Source: Mytilus trossulus
Lineage: Eukaryota
Length of the DNA stretch: 64,000 nucleotides
Assembly (NCBI RefSeq): GCF_036588685.1
Contig: NC_086373.1
Location: 7,378,001 to 7,442,000, forward strand
Direction: 5' to 3'
A program made the translations under genes and the position numbers. The notes beneath the pieces are model-generated. The model was not told the DNA's origin. It did not search any database and worked only from the letters and a program-made list of their open reading frames with translations. The first letter of the stretch is position 1; each line of letters starts with the position of its first letter. Shown piece by piece: positions 4,501 through 52,100 of this stretch.

Positions 4501-7500
4501 GGTGCGGGAATTTCTCGCTACATTGAAGACCTGTTGGTGACCTTCTACTGTTGTCTTTTACATGGTCAGGTTATTGTCTCTTTGACACATTCCCCCATTT
4601 CCATTCACAATTTTATGAGTGAGTATCCTACAGAATGAGGATTATAAAAGTGCTGGAAACTTTTAATAGAGTAGGGATACTTTCTTTTCTGGTAAAAGAC
4701 ATGATTCCAGAAGTGACGTATTACTGTATGCACTATAACCATATAATGTTAATGTGTTTGTGCACATGATTATGACTATGGTCTGCTGTATGTCCATTAT
4801 TTATCGGTATTATTGGTGAAATTTTAAACTTCAATAGTTTTTGAAGTATGCTAGGCAAATGACTCTGAGTTAAATTTTCAGAGTTCTTTTATTGATGCAA
4901 ACAAAGCAATAATACACCTTATTGCTAATCCCGGCTGACCTGGTCGCTTGAACTTTTTACACATACAACAATCACTTTTCCATTGTGGCGTCAGATATTT
5001 TGCTTAATGACGTCAAAATTTTACGGGAACCTGTGTGATATCCAGTAATGGCGGACAAATAGCGATAAGGTGTAATAACACATGTAAAAAAAACATTCGC
5101 ATGATCTGGATATATCGACTGCGACAACATCAAACGAGATATAGAAATGCAGGGATGATTCCAGTTGTTTTCAAATGGGTCCCTTGACCATCAAAATTGG
5201 GAATTTTCTTAAAATTGGGATTTTTTTTTCCGCATAAAATCTATGATGAAATAATATCATTTTCCTGTAAAAACGGAAATTGTATCAAGTTTCACCTGTT
5301 TCATAGTGTGTGGGTATCCTTTTTCATCATAAATGATCTGTCGTGTATTTTCAAAAATGTGCAGACAGTTGTTTTTTTATTTGAGAGCCAGGCAGAACCT
5401 TTACGCAATCAGCGCCTATTGAATTTTGATAATTTATAAGTTTTTCTCCCTGTCGAGGTCTGCTTTTTATATGTGACCCATTTTGACAAAAAGCATCTAT
5501 TATCTATATGCTTTTACGAAATCAAATACTCCCATAGCATTTTCTTCAATTTAATTGAAGAAAATGCTATGGGTGTATTTGATCTAGTAAAAGCATATTT
5601 CATTTAAAGGTCTGCTTTTACGAGAACTAAGCTATTGAGAAACGTCTCAGAAAAACACATTATAACAAAATGATATCATATCTTATCTTAACAATCTTTC
5701 GTTTACCGGTACATCATTCTTATTCGGATCTTAAAACAGTTTGAAGACAAATGGGGAAAATTGTAATTGCCTTAATCGGTGCGGGAAACATTTCCGGAAA
5801 AATCAATTTTAAAATATTTTTTTCTGAATTGGGAATTTATTTTCACACAATTTTTTGGGGCCGCTCGAGGAATTGAGGGCCGCTAAGCGGCCCTAAACTA
5901 TAGAGTGGAATCATCCCTGAAATGTCAAATCAGGTAACAGCTCTGAACCTTAAGTACTTGTTTCTGTACAAAGAGAAGTAAAATTTAATTTTAACAGTTT
6001 AAGGGAGATGGGTGTTTCTTTTTTTTTACAGAAAAAGAGCACAAGAGCAAGTGACTGCTTTTTAAAATACCACTAAGTATCAGTACTGAATCCGGGTCCG
6101 TCCGCCCTGATTTCGGTTCGCCCTAGTTACTGTTCGCCCTAGTTCCGTTTCGCCCTGAGACCGTTCGCCCTGATACCTGTTCGCCCTGGGTATGTTCGCC
6201 CTGATTTTTATTTTTTATTACAGTACGTGTTGTGTTGTGTGTATTTAATTGAATATGTTGAAGTCAGTCTACAATTTCGCCAAATATTTACGATGTATTG
6301 TGTTGTATACAGCTAGCTGCTACTAGGTTATAAGTTCTTGACATATTAAAGAGCACTAAAACATACAAAGCCACTATCACACATCCTTTTACTTTACATT
6401 TACACACATGATTTAATCAATAAAAGTTATACATAAGAAGCACTAAAGTTATACATAAAAGTGTTCAAAGTTCTAAGTGTTGTTCTAAAATTCTTTACTG
6501 CAGCGGCTGTACGTTGTCTAGTGGTAAAAAAAGTAATTTTAAAATAAAGTGTAACAATGCAGCAGCCAACACGAATTTTATTTAATTATCATCGTGTAAT
6601 GTGTTTTCGTACTAATAACAATTTTCACTGCTTACAGTTTTCACTGTTGAGTTTTTATTCCGGTGTTTACTCAAATTTAAAAAGCATGTCCTGTAGATTG
6701 ATTTAAGGTATCTAGATTTTTTTTCAATGCTTACTACGATTTTTTACTGTTTCCGATTACTTTGCTATTTTTGTATGTCAAAAAAACAGCGTCATATGTT
6801 TTCGTATGAAATAAAAATTGGATCAGTACACGGACAGGAAATGACTACACAATCCGGAAATTAATATTTTCTAAAGTCGTGGTTCTTATGATCGCTTGAA
6901 TCATAAAAAAAGTAAATAAATACTTTTCAGTACTAAAAATTACTTGTAAATAGTTTTAGGTTGGTAAATTGTGTGCTGAAATTTTAAGATTTTGATTGAT
7001 TTCAGATTGGCACCTGGTTTGTACAAAATACATTATTTTTTCTAAAATAAAATGCAGTTTTCAAAATTTAGGATTAAATATAAAAAGTCAAGACTGTTTC
7101 ATCTTCATGAATCAAGGATGTATACAAAAAAATTATAAATGAAATATTGAATAATTAGATTTTGAACAACCATTTTATATAAGAACCCTACTAATTTTAA
7201 CTCGCTGGTTTGTAATTAAAACGGCCCAAAAAACACATGACAGTCATATGTCTTGAAGATCCGGTATCTGACTTGCAAAAAACATATCTGGACTTTATTT
7301 TAACCCTTCAGAATTTTTTTCTATAGCTATTCTAGTGATGCATATTTTTGACATTAAATAAAAATGGCTAAATAGATCAGTTTTATTTAATTTGTTCTAA
7401 CGTCTTTAAAAAGCGACGTTGAATATGTTTAAAATATGTCAAGTTGTAGTGGTGTTGTTGTTCTAAATATAGAAACCGAAAAACACGCCACAATGTACGC

Positions 7501-7875
7501 GTATGCAGCCGAAACCGACGAAATGTGGTTGATACGAAAACATATGACATACGAAAACATATGACACGACGATAATATTCTGTATTCAGCTTTTAATAGA
7601 TAAACATAAATTTTAATATAAATATGCATTTCTTTCATTAAAGTAACATATACATATCATTAATGAGAATAGGGCGAACGAACTCAGGGCGAACGGAACA
7701 CCAGGGCGAACAAACTCAGTGCGAACGAACCTAGGGCGAACATGTAATCAGGGCGAACAATCCCGATACCATCAGTACTAGTAGTACTAGGCCCGTAGAC
7801 TAGGGTTCTACTCCTTCTTGAAGAAAAAGTCAAAACTGTTTTACCTTGGTGATTAGGTGGAACTTGTGCAAACAT
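1515..7875 (-). CDS. VPS28: Vacuolar protein sorting-associated protein 28 (ESCRT-I subunit), 5' part; 3' exons lie beyond the left edge of the window
   Basis: Coding exons 7875-7845, 3692-3664, 3221-3184, 2687-2598, 2081-1979, 1616-1515, all GT-AG with consistent phase. Translation [131 protein letters not shown] closely matches the VPS28 N-terminal domain. Confidence 0.96.
4285..4616 (+). repeat. Dispersed repeat family ending TTGTCTCTTTGACACATTCCCCATTTCCATT (other copies at about 20388-21680 split, 38890-38995 rev, 53525-53680 rev, 57050-57108)
   Basis: The same 3' motif recurs at five places in the window in both orientations. Confidence 0.75.
4913..5074. mobile_element. MITE
   Basis: TIR TACACCTTATTGCTA / TAGCGATAAGGTGTA, about 160 bp. 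Confidence 0.7.
5150..5919. mobile_element. Non-autonomous hAT-like DNA transposon with 5-bp TSD
   Basis: TIR CAGGGATGATTCCA / TGGAATCATCCCTG flanked by AAATG on both sides; contains an internal near-perfect hairpin at 5520-5584. Confidence 0.8.
6088..7770. mobile_element. Mutator/Foldback-like non-autonomous element with subterminal tandem repeats
   Basis: 9-bp TSD ATCAGTACT (6079-6087, 7771-7779). Termini GAATCCGGG / CCCGATACC, with arrays of TTCGCCCT at the left and AGGGCGAA at the right. An internal inverted pair (ATTATCATCGTGTAATGTGTTTTCGTA at about 6586 / TACGAAAACATATGACACGACGATAAT at about 7575) suggests a nested element. Confidence 0.82.
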
Positions 7876-8279: not shown

Positions 8280-11200
8280 ATGGGAAGCTCTCAAAGCGTG
8301 TTTTCAGAACAAGAATTAAACGATTATCAGGTAAACTTGATTTAAAGTTTAATGTATTCTAATGAAAAATGAAAAAATAGCCTAAACTCAACCGTCACGA
8401 TTTTGTCTATTTTTATACAGATCATCAGATGTCAAAATATAGGATGACATGTTAAAATGCTTGCAAAATTAGTTAGTTACATTTTGTGACATTTTTCTTT
8501 TTGCAGAGAAACAAACACTCTATTGAAAACTCTTGTCACGAATAGCATTGTAAACAGTACATATTGAATTTTACTATCACTCCTTTACTAAGAACCAACA
8601 AAAATAAGAATCTGGGTTCGGTTTAGTTTAAACAATATTTTATTTCAAGAAGTGCACAAAATATAATTATACAATATGAAATACAGGGATTCGGAAACAA
8701 GAAAAACTTATATAAATCCCTTTTTCATTTTCATACCCTACACACTCCCAAAGTCTGTTCGGGTCTAACAAGTTCGTGCCCTTTTTAATGGTTTTGTGTT
8801 ATAATTTGTAATCTGGTTTTGGTGGGACCATATCGCTATAATTATATTTGTTTCATTAATTCATAAGAGATATTCTGACAATGTTTTTTTTGTGTTGAAT
8901 AGATCTTAATCATGTTTTAGTTAGTGTATTTGTATTGCTGTAAAAAAATTAATCTTATTGTTTCTTTATTGGTTGAATTGTCAGCTACATTTATACAATG
9001 TATAATTACCAAGCATTTATTTCCATGAAATTAAAGAAGAATGAAGTTGCCAACTTATGATATGTTTAATTGGTGTTGCATACCAGCTAATAGTTGCTTT
9101 ACATGACATTTATTTCCGTATGAAAAGAATTTTGAAAGTACACAATACATGTATTAGACCCTTGGTTTCCCGTTTGAAGGGTTTTACACTAGTAATTTTG
9201 GGGCCCTTTATACATGTAACTTGTTGTTTAGTGTGAGCCAAGTATCCGTGTTGAAGGCTGTACATTGACCTAAAATGGTTTACTTTTTTAAATTGTTATT
9301 TGGATGGAGAGTTGTCTCATTGGCACTCACACCACATCTTCCTATATCTATGAGGGTAAAGAAGGATTTATTTTTAAGTCATCCTGATATCTTACATTCC
9401 AAGAATTATTCAAAACAAATATTATAAATATTTAAAATTTATTACAGTACTGAAACTTTAGTTCAGGAAAATATCAAGATTTTGGTATACAATGTATATA
9501 CTTATTCAACAGGATTTGAATAAAAATTCAGTGCAGTGTGAAGGGTGCGAACTGACCTGTTGGGTGATAGTGCAGGGTGCCAAAGTGTATGGGGTGCAAA
9601 CAGACCTGATACTGCAAAATAACAAATTCACAACATTGCCTATGTTGGTAAAAATGCCATTTCTGTAGAAATATCAAATGATATTTTGCTGGCTTGAAAT
9701 AAGATATTTTAATCAGAGCGGGTAAAATAGCATATATTTTCAATTTGCTGATGCTGGAAAAATAGCAACTGTCTATAATAAAAGAAGTTAAATATAACAG
9801 TCATTGATAGTGCTTAATTCTACTTTTTTCTTTCTTCAAATAAAAAAAATTAAAAAGCATATTTGTTGATATAAGTTCATAACATGTTACATATTTTCTT
9901 TCAGGATTTGACGTATTTCACTAAGAAAGAGATCCTACAGTAAGTTATCTTTAAGCATTTTAAAATACACTGTTTAGATAGAAGTCAAATAATGATCTTA
10001 AATGATAATGATTTTTTCCTCCTTTATTAGCTCACCTGGCCCATCACTTGGCGTCCGGCGTCGAAGTCCGTCGACATTTAACTTTTACAAAAATCTTCTC
10101 CTCTGAAACTACTGGGCCAAGTTAATTATAGATAGAGATAATTGTAAGCAGCTAGAATGCTCAGTAAATTAAGATGTACAAACACATCACCATCACCAAA
10201 ACACTATTTTGTCATGAATCCATCTGCGTCCTTTGTTTGATATTCACATAGACCAAGGTGAGCAACACAGGCTCTTTAGAGCCTCTAGTTTGTATTTGGC
10301 AACTCACTTGTAAACTACATGTATATTGAATAGATAGAGAGAACACAGCAAAATTGTCCAGCTAGATTGTTTTAAGATCTACAAATAAGCAATAATACAT
10401 GTTGTACCTGATTTCAATATGCCTGCTGTTTCCATTGGGGGAGGGGGCTTTTAATGATTTGTTTTAGTTTGTTATATTTTGTATGCAATTGTACAAACAA
10501 ATGATTAATTAGCATTGGCACACATCATTTAAAAATCTTAATAATAAAACTTAGAAAAAGGGTAGGTAGGAAGGATTTTTTTTTAATTTTACCTTTTTTT
10601 ATTACATTGAATTTATGGGAGGGACATCCTAACTTTAACAGTGCTTATTGAATAATGAAAAAAAACTTTAGGGTAGGCTATTTTTAAGCTTGAAAAATAG
10701 GGTGGATACTGTAAAAGGAATGACACATTTTTTTTCTATTTTCCCTGAGGTAAATAAGACATCAGATACATTTTTCATTAATTCTATTCATAAGTTTTAT
10801 TCTTTTTTGTTTCCTAGTGTTTTTAAGAGATACAAGGATTTATATGAGGACAGTGCTGATGAAAACAATAAAAAGACATCAAGTCTGGATAAAGACAAGA
10901 TTTTAAAACTACCAGAATTAAAGGTAACAGTAAAAGTCTACAGAATGACAACAAGAAATTCAGTGCTGTTCATACATACAGCTTTTGATGTGCATTAATA
11001 GATTTGACCCTGAAAATTGGTATTGAACTTCATCATAAATTTTAATTTAGTATTTTTGGCAAATATGGATTCTTGCTGAAAGTAATTCCTCAACAGATAA
11101 TTAAACATTGAAAACCTTCTAGGACCATGTGCCAACAAATGGAGTAAGTTTAGACATATATTTGATGTGTTGTAGTGATACATGTAAGTATCTTCTTTTG

Positions 11201-14163
11201 AAAGACAAAGAAATAATCTATCAATTTGCACAAGACGGATTGGTAGAGAATTACTAACTGTGTTGTTGAGTGATTTACCAAAAAAAGTTGAACAATTTCT
11301 GTCAGATGATTTTTTGTTAGTGATTTTTTTTATACAATATACATCATCAAGTTTGCTCAGGATAAATACTATGAATGCAATCATTGTCTATATACATTTT
11401 GTGTACATGTATAACCATTGAATGGCAGTGTTCCCCCTTCAACTTTCAAGTAGCATCCTGGATAACATGTAAAAAGGGAATGATTTTAAATAACATCTTG
11501 TTTCTAAAATTTTAGCTTCACACTAATAAAAAAATCTACAAGAAAACTATTTTGGATATTATCAGATATCCTACTAATAAACCAACCATCACAATACCAA
11601 GATGCTAAAAAGCCATTGGGAGAACACTGAATGATGTTTGTGAAAAATTCTTTAATGAATAATAATGACTGATGGATAATCCGATTGTAACAATATGTTT
11701 AATAAAAACACTAATAGATTTTTTTTATTCTGTGTAGTGTTATATATGTTTGTTAAACAGCTATAGCTCCTATTATTCATCAGTCAATATCATTTTAGGT
11801 AAACCCTTTCAGTGACAGAATTGTAAAAGTGTTCTCCTCGAGTGGAGATGGTAACATGACGTTTGAAGATTTCCTCGACATGATGTCTGTATTCAGTGAT
11901 GGTGCACCCAAGAATGTAAAGGTGGAATATGCATTCAGAATTTATGGTATGACAACAATACATTTATATCTTCCTGTATACATTGTATGTTAATAATCTA
12001 ATACATATATTTCAGTGTAATATTAAACACACTTAACAAAATGGTGTTGTGGTTGATTTCAAGGCCCCTATGCATAATGAATTAATTACATTTAAATCTG
12101 AATGCCTGCTATAATCAAACATACATTATATGATGGTGAAAGTAAAATATGTGTGAAAATCAAATAGTCTATTATGTATACTAGGTATTTTGTTCATGTG
12201 TAAAATAGCATGTAACAGTATATTTATGACATAAAAAGATAATTGGTGCTAACTTTGAATTGTCTGACTTTTACAGATTTTGATGAAGATGACATGATTT
12301 CGGATCAAGACCTGAAAGAAGTAGTAGACAGATTGACAGGGGAGCAAAACCTCAGTAAAGATGAAATGCAGCAGCTTATTGATAATGTAGGTATATTGTG
12401 TAAACCTCAGTAAAGATGAAATGCAACAGCTTATTGATAATGTAGGTATATTGTGTAAACCTCAGTAAAGATGAAATGCAACAACTTATTGATAATGTAG
12501 GTATATTGTGTAAACCTCAGTAAAGATGAAATGCAACAACTTATTGATAATGTAGGTATATTGTGTAAAACAGGGGAGCAAAACCTCAGTAAAGATGAAA
12601 TGCAACAACTTATTGATAATGTAGGTATATTGTGTAAAACAGGGGAGCAAAACCTCAGTAAAGATGAAATGCAACAGCTTATTGATAATGTAGGTATACT
12701 GTGTAAAACAGGGGAGCAAAACCTCAGTAAAGATGAAATGCAACAGCTTATTGATAATGTAGGTATATTGTGTAAACCTCAGTAAAGATGAAATGCAACA
12801 ACTTATTGATAATGTAGGTATATTGTGTAAAATTAAAACCAAAAATTGTCAGAAAAAATAGTGTTATACACTAACTGTTTTAAATTATTAAAATGAATAT
12901 AAATAAATTATTTGCATTCAAAGTACTTTTCAGGAATTATCTTCATCAGGAACATTCAAAGCCAAGGATGTATTAGTACTTTAAACAGGAGAACTATTAA
13001 AGGACAAATTAAGCATAGCTAAATCCATCTACAGTCAAGTTTGCTTGAGGGAGTTGACCCGAGGAGTTGAAACCTTTGTTTCTTAATAATGCCAAAATTT
13101 GAGAATGGATATTAACTCTTTCTTAATTAAAAACCTATCAAAACTGAATTGTATATCAAAATTAAAACCAGATTATAAGGAATCAAAGCAATCCCTTTCT
13201 AGGAAATTACTTATATAGGATTTATATACAATGTTGTCAATTCATAACAGAAATAGCCAAAAAATCATGTCTTTATCACTGTTACATTATATTTTTACTC
13301 TTTGGACACTTCATAATAAATGGCTCATATTAAATAAAGTTGTACATTTCTACAGATTCTAGAAGAGGCTGATTTGGATGACGATGATTCCCTGTCATTT
13401 GCTGAGTTTGAACATGTTATATCAAAGGCACCAGATTTTATCAAGTGAGTTTATAGGATTTTAGTTGAAACTTTTTTTACTGTCAATATGTGTAACCTTT
13501 TAAATATTACTTACTATGACTTATAAATATCATATATTTGGCTGTGATCATGCAGAATTCATTTCTTATAAATGCATATGAAATGAATATATATAAATGT
13601 AAGGGTCAATGATTGATTGATTGAGTATTGTTTACTTAATGTCCAGTGGCAAATGTTTCATGAATTTTCAGCAAGAAATATATATGTCAGTTAGATGACA
13701 AATTAATGACAATTACTGAAGGCAACACATAGCCTTTAGAAATTAACAGGTCTATAGTAGTGCATGCTAAATGGTCTCATGTTAAAACCAAGAAGTGAAT
13801 ACATTAAACAGAAATTGAAACATCTGCCAATAACACAAACCTTTTAGTTATGCAATAAAACAACCACTGAATATGTATATCTTATCTCTGACTAAATCAC
13901 TGAATATGTATATCTTATTTTTGACTAAACCACTGAATATGTTTTTTTTTTTTTTTACTAAACCACTGAATATGTATCTTATATCTGACTAAACCACTGA
14001 ATATGTATATCTTATCTCTTACTTAAATAAACTCATTTAGATTGGCTTAGATTTGGTTTAACAGTATGGGCTGGCTTGTTGTGGAAGTTAAAAATGTTGT
14101 TGTCACAAATAACATATCAATAAAATTATTCTTCATTTCAGCTCCTTTAGAATTCGGCTGTAG
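8280..14163 (+). CDS. CIB1: Calcium- and integrin-binding family EF-hand protein (CIB1/CIB4-type), 186 aa, 7 exons
   Basis: Exons 8280-8330, 9905-9939, 10818-10923, 11799-11946, 12277-12386, 13356-13444, 14142-14163 (561 nt, in frame). [29 protein letters not shown]...[38 protein letters not shown]...YAFRIYDFDEDD...[36 protein letters not shown]. Has an N-myristoylation-type MG start and CIB family motifs. Paralog assignment is less certain than the family. Confidence 0.92.
9155..9350 (+). repeat. Highly abundant dispersed repeat (core GAGTTGTCTCATTGGCAATCATACCACATCTTC)
   Basis: Near-identical copy at 40690-40880. The core also occurs at about 1450-1497, 3575-3630, 16510-16665 (rev), 23370-23560 (rev), 31030-31180, 31280-31312 (rev), 57665-57700 (rev) and 63200-63235 (rev). 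Confidence 0.8.
10025..10290 (+). mobile_element. Short Helentron-associated (HINE/DINE-like) element
   Basis: TTATTAGCTCACC start, GCGTC-rich tract, GGTGAGC subterminal inverted repeat and 3' hairpin AGGCTCTTTAGAGCCT; inserted in a T-run. A longer relative lies at 25737-26745. Confidence 0.75.
12346..12828 (+). repeat. Tandem array (55- and 69-bp units) duplicating the CIB exon 5 3' end and its splice donor
   Basis: Original plus units 12402-12456, 12457-12511, 12512-12566 (55 bp), 12567-12635, 12636-12704, 12705-12773 (69 bp) and 12774-12828 (55 bp). Each contains GATAAT|GTAGGT. Confidence 0.95.
13858..14025. repeat. Minisatellite, about 33-bp unit AAACCACTGAATATGTATATCTTATCTCTGACT, about 5 copies
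   Basis: Direct reading of CIB intron 6. Confidence 0.85.
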
Positions 14164-25800: not shown

Positions 25801-28512
25801 TCTCTGTCTGTCGACGTTAACAATTTTTCAAACATCTTTTCTGAAACTACTGAATGGATTTGGATGATACTTAGCATGATTGTTCCTTAGATTATCCTGC
25901 ACAAAGTTTGTGCTTCGATTTTTGATCCGTCAAAAAACATGGCCGCCGTTACTTAAAATAGAACATAGGGGTCAAACAACATTTTTATGCAAATATTTCA
26001 AATATCATTAGGATAAGGCTAATTCTGTTAGGTTGAAAGTGTTGAGCATGATAAGAGCTGCCTGTGTGCAGATTTTTGTGAAAATCTGTCCACCTTTTTA
26101 TGAGTTAATGCCCTTTTTTACATTTTTGGCTATTTTTATGTTATTATTTCAAAAATCTTCTTCTCTGAAACGACTATTCAAAATTAAATGAAACTTGGGA
26201 AGATTGTACCTTAGGATATCTTGCAAAAATTTTATGCTTGGATTTTTGATTGGTTGAAAAACTTGTCCGCCGTGACTAAAAATAGAACATAGGGGGCAAA
26301 ATGCTGTTTTTTGCTATTTTTTCCTGAATCATAGAAAGAAAATGAAGATGAAGGCTACTTTGAAGTTAAACATGTTATCCTGGGTTTAATGGTGTTGATG
26401 AAAATTTGTTTTGGGTTGCCATTTTTAAAATAGCTGCCATTTCACGACCAATTTTTACATTTGCTTGGATTTCAATGATATTTGGTTTATGTAGTAAACA
26501 TGGTATGGTGAGTTGGATGGTGAAATATTTTGATTCTGAATTTTGAGAAAATAAATAATTTGGCCAGCAAGGGGACAATGCCCATTTCTTTCCAGAGGTT
26601 CCTAAGAGGCTTTAAAAGGTACTTCCAGGATAGTACATGGCCTTTGTTACTCTGTTTAATTTACAACAAACATTAATTTATTAATTTAGTTAATAAGGCA
26701 TTGTTTTACAGGTGAGCGATTCAGGCTCTTGAGAGCCTCTTGTTTACAAGTAGTGTAAGGAAAGTAAATCTGCACAAACAAAATATTGTATGTTAACTGT
26801 TTATGTTTTACCTCCATTACACTGCTTTTGAATTGTCTTAATTGTTCATTGACCAGAAAAACCTAAGTTTCCCCCTTTTTTTGCTCCTAATTCCAAAACA
26901 TTTTAAGAACCCCCAAAGTTATAACTAACCATCCCTTATTGGTATGGAAACTTGTGGTATTATTTCAGAGAGATTCATCCACTTAACACAAGTTATTGTT
27001 TGAAAACTACAAAAATGCTTATTTTAAACCTCCTTTTTGGCCCCTAAATCCTAAACTGTGAGGACCATAACCCCCAAAATCAATCCAAACTTTCATTTAG
27101 TGGTATTGAACCTTCTGGTAAAAATTAATAGAGATCCAATAAGTAAATCTAAAGTTAGTCTGGAAAATCTTGTTTATCCTATTTTTTTGCCCCTAATCTC
27201 ACCTTTTTTAGCCCCTAATTCCAAAACATTTAGATTCATAACCCCCCAAAGTCATTTATTACCATCCCTTCATGGTATGGAAATGTGTGGTATAATTTCA
27301 GAGAGATACATACACTTAAACACAAGTTATTGTTTTAAAACTACAAAAATGCTTATTTTGGGGCCCCCTTTTTGGCCCCAGATTCCTAAACTATTGGGAC
27401 CATAACCCCCAAAAATTAATCCCAACCTTCTTTTAGTGGTATTAAACCTTCTGGTAAAAATTTAAAGATATCCATTCACTTAATCTAAAGCTATTGTCTT
27501 GAAACTGAATGTGTCTTTGGACTACAACGACATGATACCATTATACAATGCAAATTTTTTTTTGGCGGTTGTTTAAAAACTATCTGCTTGAATAATTTCA
27601 CCAATTATATACATGTCCTGATTTTCAAAGCTAAAGTTATCAAATTGCGGTGTCCATTGATTTTAAAGTATAGATGAAGAATAAATATAAAATATCATCA
27701 ATTACAATATATCCGAACTAATCTGAGTATATATTATTTTGATACTGAGTCAACCCAATACCATTGTTTTACTTTTGATAACTCATTACTTCCAGCACTT
27801 AAAATGAGCACTGCAGAAAACCACAGGAATGTCGACTTATTTTTCAGTGTTTGGTATTGATAATTTCATATCATTCATATCATACATGTATAATTTGTTT
27901 TTCATTACATCTATTTTTTTAAGAACTTGATTTGTTCAGAGTTTCACATTATATTGAACAGAAACTGGTCACAAATAAGATGGTATATAGTCTTTACTCT
28001 ATAAGCACATTTATAAGGTCACCTTTTATAGATGTTCCACAGAAAATGGAAATCCTCAAACAGTTGAGTGCCATATCATTTGTTTATGAAAGAGCATTTC
28101 AAACTTTTCTTAAAAATATATCACCTTGATCATTGATGCAATATATGTGAGCTGAAATATTACACTTAAGTAAATTGCTTCTTACATAATTTTATATTTT
28201 CTTCATTATTTTCGCAAATTTAATAAAACTGTATAGCTATGAAGCAGACATTGGAATAACACATTAAAACTCATGGTGTGGTCCTTGTATAAAGCATATT
28301 CTAAGTTTACTTAATGCATTTATTTTTTAATACTAAATTAATCTTTTTTTTTTATTCCTAACAGTGTTATAATGTCTACCCGACATTCAGATAACATCAA
28401 TCTGCCATACCTAGATCATGAGGCAAGAAGATCACCTCTTATACGAAGATTTGCTGACAGAAGTTCCCAACGAGACAGAGAAATGAGGGATGTTATTTTT
28501 GAAAAGCGATAA
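19825..28512 (+). CDS. CIMIP2C: Ciliary microtubule inner protein 2C (FAM166C/C2orf70 ortholog), 201 aa, 4 exons
   Basis: Exons 19825-19895, 23053-23326, 23842-23954, 28365-28512 (606 nt). [41 protein letters not shown]...HFQDYR...GGEFPT...RNRDRWL...HREHYVDKSGTV...RDVIFEKR* has the PGYxGHxP (FAM166) motif and matches C2orf70 end to end. Confidence 0.92.
20427..21659. mobile_element. Non-autonomous DNA transposon with 8-bp TSD
   Basis: Perfect TIR CTCGGGGGGGCCACTTC / GAAGTGGCCCCCCCGAG, TSD TTTCCCCA (20419-20426, 21660-21667). It splits a copy of the TTGACACATTCCCCATTT repeat. Confidence 0.88.
20994..21382. mobile_element. TTAA-target MITE (Kolobok/piggyBac-like) nested in the 8-bp-TSD element
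   Basis: TTAA|GGATGT ... ACTTCC|TTAA; related copy at about 18940-19362. Confidence 0.65.
21697..22168. mobile_element. MITE
   Basis: Imperfect TIR GGTCCAAGACCACAATT / AATTGTATTCTCGGACC. Confidence 0.6.
25419..27579 (-). mobile_element. Helentron/HINE-like element with internal tandem repeats of about 150 bp (family A), carrying a nested HINE
   Basis: End AACCAGGTGCTCCGCAG..GCAGCTTTATACGACC and opposite end GCGGTTGTTTAAAAA; repeats of CCTAAACTGTTGGGACCATAACCCCCAAAATCAAT. Homologous to 34460-35975, 41790-42828, 47329-49325 and 50578-51000. Confidence 0.75.
25737..26745 (+). mobile_element. HINE-like element nested in the family A copy
   Basis: TTATTAGCTCACC...GTGAGCT, GCGTCCGTCGTC tract, two internal repeats (TCTGAAAC.ACT...AAAATAGAACATAGGGG) and 3' CAGGTGAGCGATTCAGGCTCTTGAGAGCCTCTTGTT. 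Confidence 0.8.
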
Positions 28513-41789: not shown

Positions 41790-42828
41790 GATTTTTGTTT
41801 TGCTTCTGTGCTGTTGAATATAAATCCCCTCCAAAAAAATAATTGAATAAAAAATTCTGTTTGATTTCTGAAATCTGAAATGAGAAAAATAATAAGGGAG
41901 GTAATCAAGTATTCAAAAATATATATGACAGAATTCTTTAAATTGTTTATTGGATTACCTCCCTTACACTGCTTAAATTGTCTTTTAACCAGAAAAAAAC
42001 CCTTGTTTTCCCTCCTTTTTAGCCCCTAATTGGTTTATGATTTGAGCCATAACCCCATAGCCATCCCTTTGTAGTATGGAAACTTGTGGTATAATTTCAG
42101 AGAGATTTATTCACTTCAACACAAGTTATTGACTGAAAACTACAAAAAATGCTTTTTTGGTCCCCCCTTTTGACCCCTTACTTATTGACCCCCCTTTTAG
42201 AACCAAAACTCAATTCCAGCCTTTCCTTTGTAGTAAGAAAGCTTGTAGTATAATTTCAGAGAGATCCATACACTTAAACACAAGCTATTGTCTGTAAACT
42301 TGAAAAATACCTCTTTTTAGGCCCCTTATTCCTAAATGTTCAGGGATATTAACTCCACACTGAATCCAAGCCTTCCCTTCGTTTTATTGAATCTTGTGGT
42401 ACAATGTCAGAGAGATCCATATAGTTATACATAAGTTATTAGCCCAAAACTATAAAAAAATATTTTTTGGCCCTTAATTCCTAGGCTGTTTGCCCCATAA
42501 CCCTTAACCTTCTACTTAATGATATAAACATTATGGTGCAATATCAGAGCAATTGAAATACTTTTATACAACTTATTGTCCTGCGGCTAGATAAATACTT
42601 GTTTTGGGCCTATAATTTCTAAATTGTTGGGACCATAACCCCCAAAATCAATTCCAACCCTTCTTTTGTGGTTATAAACATTGTGTTAAAATTTTATTGA
42701 TTTCTATTTACTTGTACTAAATTCATTATCCTGAAACCATCTGTCTTCTGACGATGCTGACGACGACACAGACAATGTGATACCAATATACAACAATTTT
42801 TTTTAAAACTTTTGCAGTCGTATAAAAA
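41790..42828 (-). mobile_element. Helentron/HINE-like family A copy (partial)
   Basis: Tandem TAATTTCAGAGAGATCCATACACTTAAACACAAG units, GACGAC tract and terminal TTTGCAGTCGTATAAAAA. Confidence 0.72.
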
Positions 42829-46178: not shown

Positions 46179-49100
46179 TCAGTGATGATGTCGACCTTGA
46201 ACTTGAGATTTTAAAAATTCTTCATAAGCTGCCTCCATTTCATCATCCATACCTGAATAGCCATCATCATAATGTTCTATCCTATAATAAAGAAAACACA
46301 AATTTTATTAAAATATGAAAGTTAAAAATAATAAGATGATGATCTAGTCATCACAAATAACCTGACTTGCAGATATGCCTTACATTTTGGATTCTTTCCA
46401 ATCCCAGATATCATTGTTTAGTTAAATTTAAACAGTATTTTATTGAAAAAAATTTGAATTGGATTGGGAAACAGGCAATGCTTATGTAAGCCCTCTCCAT
46501 AAGAGAAATCAGAGTAATAATATACAGACAGTATTTGGTAAATTAAAGTTTTCATTCAACAATTAACTTACTGTTGATAATCATAATTTTCAGGATATGC
46601 TGACCAGGATGGATAAAATTGACCATCATCTAATTCTCCAGCCTCCCATCTGGCGTACTCCTCAGCTGCCTCCTCCTCTGCCATCAGATAACTATTATAG
46701 TCGTTAAAACCTGCCTCTTCTCTCGTGATTGGCTGTCCCTTACTGTTATAAAATATTGGCTCATTCTACAAAAATATATCATTAAAGATCAATTTTATAT
46801 AACTACTTAAGGAGGCTCGCCGGTTTAAGATTTTCAGAAAAAAATAAAACTTTTTTCAAATTTTATTAATTACATTTAGTAGTTATTTTATCTTAGGGTA
46901 CAAAAATCATTCCAAAAAATCTTTTCGTGTTGGCCACAGGTGACTTTTAAAATGAAGTTATCATTGGAAAAGCTCCAAATTATCTCCCTTTGGTGCAAAA
47001 ATGCCATTTTTAGCATAAAAATTGAAATATCTTTTTTAACTCATTGGTGACCTATATTTTTTAAGGTTGTTTTCAAATAAGCTGAACATAAACTAAATAA
47101 TTGTAAAATTTATGCGATTTCTGTAATTAGCTTCTTTTTTATTTCGATATTACCGATTTTTCTCCTATAAGTTCAACAGAAAAACAGAACATTAACAAAA
47201 ATGTATGCTTCTTTCGAAGGCAGATTGTGAGCGTAAATGAACGGTGATCCCATTTTTTTATTTCATTTTTCTATTAAGTATAAGATAAAGTTCATTTATA
47301 GAAAAATAAGGCAAAGTCCTGTATTAAATAACCAGATGCTTCGCAGGGCGTAGCTTTATACGACCGCAGAGGTTGAACCCTGAACGGTTGGGGCAAGTAT
47401 GGACACAACATTCAAGCTGGATTCAGCTCTAAATTTGGATTGTGATTAAATAGTTGACACAGCATAGGTTTCTGACACAGAATGAATGTGTTCTAATGAA
47501 CTTAAAAATTTTGTTTTCTCTTAGAGCAATTCACTATGCTGTTCAATATTAATCCTCTCAAAAAAATGTTTGGAGAAATTTTCTTTTTATTTATGAAATT
47601 TCAAATGAGAAAAATAAAACCCAATTTTTTAATCACATCCCCCTTTCCCTTATTCCAAAACTAATCTCAATTATAATATTCTAATGGAGTTTGCAACAAT
47701 AACTACTCATTTAAATACATCATAAAATATTAAGATGTTAAAAAACTGCTTGTTATCACTGAATGGTAAAGATTATTTAAATTTATCAGTTGGTAGTAAA
47801 AAGTGAATATACATTGTATATTTATCAGTTGGTAGTAAAAAGTGAATATACATTGTATATTGTATATAACAAAGATTTAAGTTGATTCTGGACAAAGAAA
47901 GATAACTCCAATTAAAAAAAATTCTTGCAATAAGATATTTCTTGCTTACTATTTTGGACAAAGAAAGATAACTCTAATTTAAAAAAAATTTGCTATTTCA
48001 CAATATTGTGAAATTATATATTTCTTGCCATTGCACAATACTGTGCAATTGAAAAGACTTGCTATTGCACAATACTTAATATAATAATTTTAGATCCTGA
48101 TTTGGACCAACTTGAAAACTGGGCCCATAATCAAAAATCTAAGTACATGTTTAGATTCAGCATATCAAAGAGGCCCAAGAATTTAATTTTTGTTAAAATC
48201 AAACTTAGTTTAATTTTTGACCCTTTGGACCTTAATGTAGGCCAATTTGAAAACGGGACCAAAAATGAAGAATCTACATACACAGTTAGATTTGTCATAT
48301 CAAAGAACCCCATTTATTCAATTTTTGATGAAATCAAACAAGTTTAATTTTGGACCCAGATTTGGACCAACTTGAAAACTGGGCCAATAATCAAGAATCT
48401 AAGTACATTTTTAGATTCAACATATCAAAGAACCCAACCGATTAATTTTTTGTCAAAATCAAACTAAGTTTAATTTTGGACCCTTTGGACCTTAATGTAG
48501 ACCTATTTGAAAACATGACCAAAAGTTAAGAATCTACATACACAGTTAGATTCGGCATATCAAAGAACCCCAATTATTCAATTTTGATGAAATCAAACAA
48601 AGTTTAATTTTGGACCCTTTGGGCCCCTTTTTCCTACTGTTGGGACCAAAACTCCCAAAATCAATATCAACCTTCCTTTTATGGTCATTAACCTTGTGTT
48701 TAAATTTCATAGATTTCTATTTACTTATACTAACGTTATGGTGTGAAAACCAAGAAAAATGCTTATTTGGGTCCCTTTTTGGCCCCTAATTCCTAAACTG
48801 TTGGGACCTAAACTCCCAAAATCAATATTAATCTTCCTTTCGTGGTCATAAACATTATGTTTAAATTTCATTGATTTCTATTTACTTAAACTAAAGTTAT
48901 TGTGCGAAAACCAATAATAATGTATTTGGGCCCTTTTTTGGCCCCTAATTCCTAAACTGTTGGAACCAAAACTCCCAAAACAATCCCAACCTTTCTTTTG
49001 TGGTCATCAACCTTGTGTCAAAATTTCATAGATTTCTATTAACTTAAACTAAAGTTATAGTGCGAAAACCAAGAAAATGCTTATTTGGGCCCATTTTGGC

Positions 49101-52100
49101 CCCTAATTCCTAAAATATTGGGACAAAAACTCCCAAAATCAATACCAACCTTCCTTTTATGGTCATAAACCTTGTGTTAAAATTTAATAGATTTCTATTC
49201 ACTTTTACTAAAGTTAGAGTGCGAAAACTAAAAGTATTCGGACGACGACGACACAGACGACGACGCCAACGTGATAGCAATATACGACGAAAATTTTTTC
49301 AAAATTTGCGGTCGTATAAAAAAAATGATTTAGACCCACGAGCCCCCTTAAGGTGGTATGGGAGTCTAAAATAAAAATGATAGAATTTGTTCATACTTTG
49401 TCAAAATGTAGTATCTATTGATACATGTTCAAAAATATCATAAAAATGATAGGTCACCGCGCATTTTCTCAAGCTACAGGTTGTGACAAAATGACAAATT
49501 TTGTAATGGATTATACAGGAAAAAACAACATTTTGTGAATAGAAACTAAACAAAATGATAGAATTGTAAAATAAATTAGGAAAAGATTGCTGTCAGACAA
49601 TGCTTTGAGAATATCAAAAGAAAAGATAGGGTCACCATACGTTTTTTTCTGCTGAAAGACAAAATAGGAAAATTTCATGTAGAGTCCTTCAGAAAATGCA
49701 CTGTTTTATAGTTAACTCCCCTTAAATTGACAATTTGAAAATATTAAAAAAAATATAAAAAATAATCTACACTTGTAAAAATATTAATATTTTTAAATTA
49801 TATTCTTATAAATTGGTTCTTATAAATGAAAATTCACATTAAATATCTGCATTCCTGCATCAAATTTTACTAACTTGATAGAAAATATGGACCTTAGATT
49901 CTCTGTTTTTTTACAATCCAAGATGGCGAAATACACCCATACCACCTTAAGTACACAAAGATATGTCTATCTGATTTAAATTTTCTTTTAAGATATTTTT
50001 TTTAAAGCTTCATTATTTACTTGTCCACTTTGCATTTTTGTTCTGTATATATAAAATTTAGTTAATAAAATTGCGGTTCCTTAAGTAATTTTTTTCTCTA
50101 AAATCCCAAATAAAACTGTCTAATTTAAGTGGTAGTTCAAGTGAACAGATGAATATATCCACCTACCAAGTTCTTCTGAGTCATCAAATACTTTATAAGA
50201 CATGTCCAGAATATGTGTTCTGACATTATTTTTAATATAAACATCCAATGGATGATTGTGATGGTCCAGATTGGGCCAATTATTCAAACAAGTAAAGACT
50301 CAACAACATGAACCCAATCATCATGCATGGAAGTGATATCAGGTGCTCCACAGCAAGAACTTACCAGATCATATTCCTGTTGGTTCTGAAAAGACATGTT
50401 TGGCTGAGAGGATGCTGAATCTCTTCGTCCCCAGTTACTGGACTTAAGACTTAAAACTGATGCTATCAAACATTGACTTGTCCTGAAATAACAACAACAT
50501 AATCGGACTTAATGATAAAAAAGAATGTGTTGTCTTTGTGTTTGAACTTAATTAATAAGGTAATAAATTAAATTAAATACTGCATGGACGCAGCTTGATA
50601 GGACCACAGAGGTCAAAACCCATATTAGTTGGGGCAAGAATGGACACTACATTCAAGCTAGATACAGCCCTTATTTAGATTGTGATTTAACATTTATCCA
50701 AGCAAAGGTTTCTGATACAGAATGAATGTGGTCAATGAACTTAAAATTTGAAATTAGATATTCACCGATTATTGCCCAATATCAAAATATAAATACATGA
50801 TAAGGATCAGCATATCAAAGGAACCCAAAATTCTATTTTTGATGAAATTATGAAATCATACAAAGTTTATTTTTGACCTCAATGTGGACCAATCTGATAA
50901 CCTGGCTCAAAATCAAATACCTGAATACAGTTACAGATACAGAAGAACATCAAACCCCATATTGAAAATAAACAAAGTTGAACCATATTAAAAACAGGGA
51001 CTAAAAAAAACAACATAATTACTATTTTAGTTTTACTTACTTATTTAAATGCTGATTTGCCTGTAACTGACCAAGACGTGTAAATATTTCACTATAGTTG
51101 CCTTCTTCAGGTTTATTTAAATGTCCTGTATCTTCAATTGCAGCTCCTGCCATCTATCAAATTTAAAATTAAATTGAAAACACTATCAAAACACCAATAT
51201 TATTAGTGTTCATACCACAAGTAAATATCAATAGAACTGTTCACTAATACTCCTTTGCCATTTTGTTCATTCATTTATTTCAATATCAGTATAGATTGAA
51301 AATAAACACACATTCTGTGAGTATTGCATAGCAATACATAGTTTATTACCAGTTAAAAGTTCATTCTATTGAAACAAAACTGTAAATTGATCTGTAACTT
51401 GTCATGGTGTAAACTTTATTATAAATACCAAGTAGTTATCTTCAAACATGACGAAAAAAAGTGTTGAAAACCGATTATTTAAGTGAATTTTCTATGTCCA
51501 AGGACCAAACTCTGCACACAATTATCCTATCAAAACAAAAATCAACCATGATCTGTAACTTATCCTGATAAAACTAATACGAATTAACTAATCAAAATCT
51601 TCAAGAATGACAAAATGAATTGGGCAAAATTTAGTATTTTAGGTAATTTTCTAGGTTTAAGGACATTAACTCATAAAATCACCAGACATGAACAAAATTC
51701 AAACTTGATCTGTACCTTGTCATGATAAAACTATATACCACTACATGTGATAACATCAATATATTCAAGAATATAAATTGCGCAAAAATCATTATTTTAG
51801 TAAATTTTCGAAGTCAAAGGAGCTCGACCGAAACTCTGCACAATTTTTTTCAGACTGGAACAAACTTTGAACTGATCTGTAACTTAGTCATGATAAAGCA
51901 ATTCACCGAATATCAAATCAAATTCTTCAGGCATGAAGAAAATAAGTGTGGAAAATTGATTTGCCAGACAGAATGCACAGAGTACAACCCTAAGGTCATC
52001 TCCATACACCAATCCCAGGACTTAAGAGATTGTCTTGCCTGTACATAATTTTGTTGAAATGTTAAAATTATATTGGTAATACTTTTAACATGTAAAACAT

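Follow-up and report, generated by a model that had tools for sequence, protein, structure and literature searches.

The end of exon 5 and the beginning of intron 5 of a seven-exon EF-hand gene are repeated in tandem in the 64,000-nucleotide stretch of mussel DNA analysed here (the window). The array is a genuine minisatellite, the length of which appears to vary greatly, and we consider it probable that the first of its eight identical splice donors is the one spliced and that the other copies are silent look-alike sites within the intron. The window was compared with six of 24 listed sequencing runs, all examined as assembled contigs placed on two stretches that each hold one repeat unit. 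Three of the runs (X1, X2 and X3) are of DNA type; the other three (X7, X8 and X11, from three studies and with two organism labels) are only guessed to be of RNA type and are called RNA-type runs below. We found no study of this locus in the literature.

A donor repeated across the exon 5/intron 5 boundary

The host genome is a 1.30-Gb, AT-rich animal genome, and related runs carry a mollusc label. The gene occupies 8280–14163 on the + strand and encodes an intact protein of 186 residues, with GT..AG ends at all introns. Coding exon 1 (8280–8330, 51 nt) begins with the ATG and ends at a GT donor, from which the frame is unbroken to exon 7. Exons 2 (9905–9939, 35 nt) and 3 (10818–10923, 106 nt) follow from the gene model, as does exon 4 (11799–11946, 148 nt), whose 3' end is also read, in X7 and X8, as the loose sequence preceding exon 5. 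Exon 5 (12277–12386, 110 nt), the last 40–51 nt of which form the exonic portion of the repeat unit, is spanned from 12276 to 12386 by contigs of the same two runs. The acceptor of exon 6 (13356–13444, 89 nt) is supported by a GT..AG joint to 13356 in X7 and X11, and the coding part of exon 7 (14142–14163), which runs to the TAG stop, by a loose end behind 13444 in X11. Read by eye, the translation has a size of about 190 aa, an N-terminal MG motif and two acidic EF-hand loops in its C-terminal half, encoded in seven coding exons. We refer to the gene as a putative CIB (calcium- and integrin-binding) gene, a name used in a preliminary description of this DNA and in agreement with the protein and exon sizes; the coding exon sizes of 51, 35, 106, 148, 110, 89 and 22 nt resemble those of human CIB1.

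Tandem Repeats Finder (TRF) and the unit and donor positions place the minisatellite at 12347–12828 on the + strand, with eight units spaced 55, 55, 55, 69, 69, 69 and 55 bp and unit starts running from 12347 to 12774. As in other boundary minisatellites, the first unit (12347–12401) straddles the exon/intron junction, here at 12386/12387, and the donor is repeated unchanged, being the same from −3 to +8 in all eight units. The donor GTs begin at 12387, 12442, 12497, 12552, 12621, 12690, 12759 and 12814, each in the context AAT followed by GTAGGTAT. These positions confirm the eight identical donors and the 3x55, 3x69, 1x55 arrangement of the preliminary description, although the first donor had been placed at 12386, which is the last base of the exon. 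Donor 1 (12387–12394, + strand) is the one in use, as contigs of X7 and X8 pass from 12386 directly into exon 6; from their positions and the contigs, donors 2–8 (12442–12821, + strand) are identical pseudo-sites for which no use is seen.

The 55-bp unit consists of 40 exon and 15 intron bases and the 69-bp unit of 51 exon and 18 intron bases, so that the earlier account of the repeated part (the last 40–50 nt of the exon and the first 15 nt of the intron) is right for the shorter unit but not for the longer one. The units vary at three positions only (25, 28 and 50), two of which are silent third positions of Gln-Gln codons; the ATACTG variant, previously assigned to unit 5, is actually in the sixth unit. 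The longest exact repeat is 113 nt, compared with a mean of 10.2 and a maximum of 15 in 100 dinucleotide shuffles, and the array is found at a single locus in its own genome (seven matches, all within the array).

An in-frame TAA in unit 2 (12411–12413, + strand) ends any message spliced from donors 2–8, and each of these donors leads to a product of 158 residues rather than the 186 obtained through donor 1, which bears out the truncation predicted earlier. In the donor 2 message 117 nt separate the stop from the last junction, and the distance is at least that for donors 2–8 as a group, making these messages eligible for NMD by the 50–55 nt rule, again as had been proposed. Three 69-bp (23-codon) junction units (12570–12776, + strand) are open in the frame of the exon, in agreement with the earlier statement that the 69-bp unit is in frame; in this allele they lie only behind the TAA.

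Other repeats are present in and around the gene. An element of about 1.68 kb (6088–7770), 500 bp upstream of exon 1, lies between exact 9-bp direct repeats (6079–6087 and 7771–7779) and carries facing subterminal arrays of a 15–16-bp unit at 6098–6207 and 7671–7758. It has the appearance of a non-autonomous, Mutator-like DNA transposon that duplicated 9 bp of its target. Intron 6 holds a second minisatellite (13862–14023; 33-bp unit, five copies, 83% matches), whose end lies some 120 bp upstream of the exon 7 acceptor. Introns 5 and 6 also contain short fragments of interspersed repeats of very high copy number (12920–12960, 13060–13100 and 13610–13670), with contig depths in X1 from thousands to more than 100,000, and a dispersed family of 135–160-bp tandem units is present at three places in the window (48085–49228, 42016–42647 and 26874–27513).

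Donor use in the RNA-type runs

X7 is the most telling run, because it carries the array and yet its spliced contig equals exon 5 of the window letter for letter. This contig (1025 letters, depth 15.7) runs from exon 4 through exon 5 to exon 6 with no other letters over 12276–12386. The array is represented by an 85-letter contig, the length expected of a 55-bp loop, which loops back from 12401 to 12347 at a depth of 48.1; this is 8–10 times the depth of the intron 5 contigs (4.6–6.2), as unspliced RNA or DNA would give. X8 yields a single contig (664 letters, depth 190) with the same exon order and nothing beyond donor 1. In X11, for which no array contig is listed, a contig of 533 letters (depth 27.5) has one unit joined to exon 6 and then exon 7, and we infer that its 140 upstream letters are exons 5 and 4. 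A spliced contig with one unit joined to exon 6 is present, then, in all three RNA-type runs, these being steady-state contigs with carriage of the array shown only for X7. The mRNA uses the most upstream donor in each, as in known boundary minisatellites. Together with the 186-aa frame that is intact through donor 1, these contigs uphold the earlier claim that only donor 1 is productive.

A joint from a downstream donor was looked for in the contigs of the three RNA-type runs and none was found, although contigs miss rare or NMD-destroyed forms. Nor is any loose end listed in X7 by which the repeat contig would continue into exon 6, though the array and an unbroken spliced contig are both present there. 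For donors 2–8, 'not used' and 'used and destroyed' by NMD are inseparable in steady-state contigs of this kind. An apparent joint from 12813 to 13356 was rejected as a sign of donor 8 use: the stretch used for that placement contained a single unit, unit 8, onto which every spliced exon end maps, and the other placement puts the joint at donor 1.

Intron 5 (12814–13273) lies under contigs in two RNA-type runs, X7 (at the depths given above) and X11 (depth 2). For this cover, and for the exact coincidence of one end of the X7 intron contig with the last donor's GT (12814), unspliced RNA, DNA carry-over or chance are possible explanations; the contig end was discarded as evidence for donor 8, as contigs cannot show starts. 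The absence of cover over introns 4 and 6 in the RNA-type runs was likewise not used as a sign of intron 5 retention.

Letters at the spliced exon end differ among the runs. In X11 they are those of units 3, 4, 5 and 8 (no other letters relative to unit 8), and the spliced contig of X8 has two other letters relative to unit 1, at sites that are unlisted. These differences are most simply explained by alleles of exon 5 that vary at silent sites, although a graph chimera is a possible source, as exon 5 and the 69-bp units have 35 nt in common. In X7 a second piece of the repeat contig has no other letters relative to unit 1 and misfits a perfect one-variant loop, so that a difference in letters between array and message is only partly shown in that run. 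The preliminary description had suggested that unit SNPs be used to assign donors; because the real exon ends of X11 and X8 appear to vary at those very letters, such an assignment is unsafe unless DNA of the same animal is at hand.

An alternative is a constant leak, in which a small fraction of splicing goes through donors 2 and 3 and their products, stopping at 12411–12413, are destroyed by NMD, with a loss of output that is independent of array length. There is precedent for this in the Introduction of PMC1557585, according to which human 6-16 (IFI6) and CBS intron 13 constitutively use the first donor plus the next two copies, and the distance of 117 nt between the donor 2 stop and the last junction suits it; moreover, the repeat and intron 5 contigs of X7 and the shallow intron 5 contig of X11 could be slowly spliced RNA. 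However, no joint from donor 2 or 3 appears in any of the three RNA-type runs, one of them at a depth of 190, and the depth ratio of repeat to intron in X7 fits an unspliced template or DNA carry-over. We regard such a leak as unlikely, and favour use of donor 1 with the later copies silent.

Array length among runs and its possible effects

Repeat junctions or multi-copy unit contigs are present in all three DNA-type runs and in one of the three RNA-type runs (X7), and the four array-bearing runs stem from three studies. In X1 the intron haplotypes have depths of 21.2 and 18.4 and the 69-bp junction 44.3; two 58-letter unit contigs at depths of 115.7 and 120, compared with about 20 per haplotype, point to some 12 units over the two haplotypes together. 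X1 is possibly the sample from which the window itself derives, its second allele being shorter, and it is not independent of the window. In X2, which differs from X1 in organism label and in study, the 69-bp junction is found on a 99-letter contig whose depth is that of a single copy (about 1x flank); a 69-bp loop would be expected to give 99 letters, and the only unit contig listed for this run is of the in-frame 69-bp type. In X3, which shares its study with X2, the unit contigs reach depths of 456, 195 and 122 over a flank of 6.71, which gives about 58–115 copies by depth, according to whether the flank represents one allele or both. The X3 contigs have zero, one and two differences from unit 1, break at position 50 as the variants of the window predict, and none of them extends into unlike sequence.

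Copy estimates across the runs range from about 2 to more than 50, these being contig depths relative to flank, which are rough and not true copy numbers. On this rough measure copy number differs between alleles or individuals, as in known boundary minisatellites; the array appears to be a VNTR, and wide variation in its length between animals is likely.

The preliminary description proposed that copy number tunes productive splicing, as a rheostat or hypomorphic allele, or that alleles with a 69-bp unit first encode repeat-expanded proteins. Developed fully, alleles with about 2 to about 100 identical donors would form a series in which longer arrays make more use of distant donors, giving hypomorphs where a 55-bp unit comes first and an expanded CIB where a 69-bp unit does. 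If true, the former would be tunable and the latter would add copies of a 23-residue linker before the last EF-hand, amounting to a heritable splicing dial between decay and protein expansion that is switched by a 14-bp deletion. The copy range from about 2 to more than 50 would give such a dial its range, the sole unit contig listed for X2 is of the type required, and the number of repeats in human F7 has been associated with FVII levels, according to the available part of a review (PMC7849579), so that a small quantitative effect is possible. However, the size of a leak to the nearest copies would be independent of how long the array is, and a dial therefore requires distant donors to be in use, whereas the leak of 6-16 and CBS reaches the next two copies only, as far as the Introduction of PMC1557585 goes. 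In the portion of the same paper dealing with F7, pseudo-sites stay unused even when distant, when strengthened (consensus value up to 91, failing to compete) or when in frame. No contig from a downstream donor is seen in the three RNA-type runs, each of which has one unit joined to exon 6, and none of 7996 candidates scored as a longer protein with a repeated 23-residue unit, although this was a weak search. The tolerance of very long arrays would itself argue for neutrality. The proposal finds no support in these data, and we think it improbable, more so than the leak.

That an assembler multiplied a single exon end is scarcely credible: nothing speaks for it except that none of the contigs listed spans the whole array, whereas the units differ at three distinct positions, contigs with the repeat junction or with multi-copy units are present in four runs of three studies (X1, X2, X3 and X7), and the lengths (58 and 33 letters) and depths of the X1 contigs match a simulation of the window's allele, so that the artefact considered in the preliminary description can be set aside.

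Choice of donor 1 and comparison with known boundary minisatellites

The donor is not weak, because it has 8 of 11 matches to the U1 consensus, equal to the best in a gene whose donors range from 5 to 8. RNA structure favouring donor 1 was considered and rejected, as its predicted unpaired probability is 0.001, compared with 0.002–0.089 at the others, making it the least open of the eight. Local folding thus does not single out donor 1, and position rather than structure remains as the reason. Every donor contains AG/GT at +3 to +6 (12389–12392 and the equivalent bases of each unit), for which no use is seen. Recursive-splicing or proto-splice sites have this motif, and they have been invoked to explain how tandem duplication can create introns. 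Recursive splicing through this motif (AG at +3/+4) was rejected, the pyrimidine tract and the regenerated donor being weak and such a step not being needed.

Removal of 14 bases lying between AAA microhomologies turns the 69-bp unit exactly into the 55-bp unit, which suggests that the in-frame 69-bp duplication came first. In this scheme a 69-bp tandem duplication across the exon 5/intron 5 boundary would have been followed by loss of 14 bp between the two microhomologies, generating the 55-bp unit, after which slippage or unequal exchange may have altered the copy number. By analogy with F7 and the lancelet genes, the acceptor at 12276 and the earliest adequate donor, 110 nt downstream, probably define exon 5 between them, and donor 1 is probably chosen while later copies are still being transcribed. 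The identical downstream copies, predicted to be no less accessible, would not outcompete it and would leave with the intron. The array would then drift almost neutrally, with rare messages spliced further down being cleared by NMD, and it is most likely harmless.

As it stands, the finding is of modest value, being one more boundary-spanning minisatellite. Its two unit types and apparently very wide copy range nevertheless offer a natural test, in an invertebrate, of 'first donor wins' against later donors that are used but whose messages are destroyed by NMD. In addition, the array provides an intron-length marker of high variability, and it is liable to mislead gene prediction.

The closest parallel is the 37-bp VNTR of human F7 intron 7, in which the most upstream of 5–9 identical donors alone is used (Borensztajn et al. 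2006, PMC1557585, in the text available; restated in the accessible part of PMC6627357). This contradicts the expectation, voiced in the preliminary description, that identical competing donors favour the intron-proximal copy. The F7 work comprised 50 constructs, and the next donor takes over upon mutation of the first, as the same available text reports; it was in mammalian cells, and not in molluscs, that the scanning model of donor choice was tested. According to the Introduction of that paper, the boundary minisatellites of LMNB2 and PDGF also use the first donor only. The available part of PMC10078293 contains nothing on repeated donors. In lancelets, the 'mirages' of Adh3 and the globins BflGb6 and BflGb9 vary in length with splicing undisturbed, as the available text of PMC3087553 describes.

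Each of the four features of the F7/mirage type that can be checked here is seen in the mussel array. With F7 intron 7, as far as it is described in the text at hand, it shares a first unit across the boundary, identical donors down the intron, a polymorphic copy number and use of the most upstream donor. Unlike those of F7, however, the mussel units are longer and mostly exonic (40–51 of 55–69 nt) and are of two lengths, of which one keeps the frame and the other does not; their number seems to rise far above the 5–9 copies of F7, the host is a mollusc and not a mammal, and F7 was tested by minigenes whereas the mussel array is known from contigs. With the lancelet mirages, on the same partial account, it has in common a tandem duplication at an invertebrate exon boundary, varying unit lengths, haplotypes that differ in copy number and the maintenance of normal splicing, although the genes and the phylum are different and somatic instability is shown for lancelet Adh3. 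It resembles 6-16, CBS, LMNB2 and PDGF, as summarized in that Introduction, in that the authentic donor is repeated in an intronic minisatellite, but use of the next two copies, as in 6-16 and CBS, is not seen in the mussel contigs, which could miss it. Human and lancelet genes have already provided examples of this kind of repeat; the peculiarity of the mussel array lies in the pairing of an in-frame unit with a stop-carrying one, together with an apparently large range of copy number.
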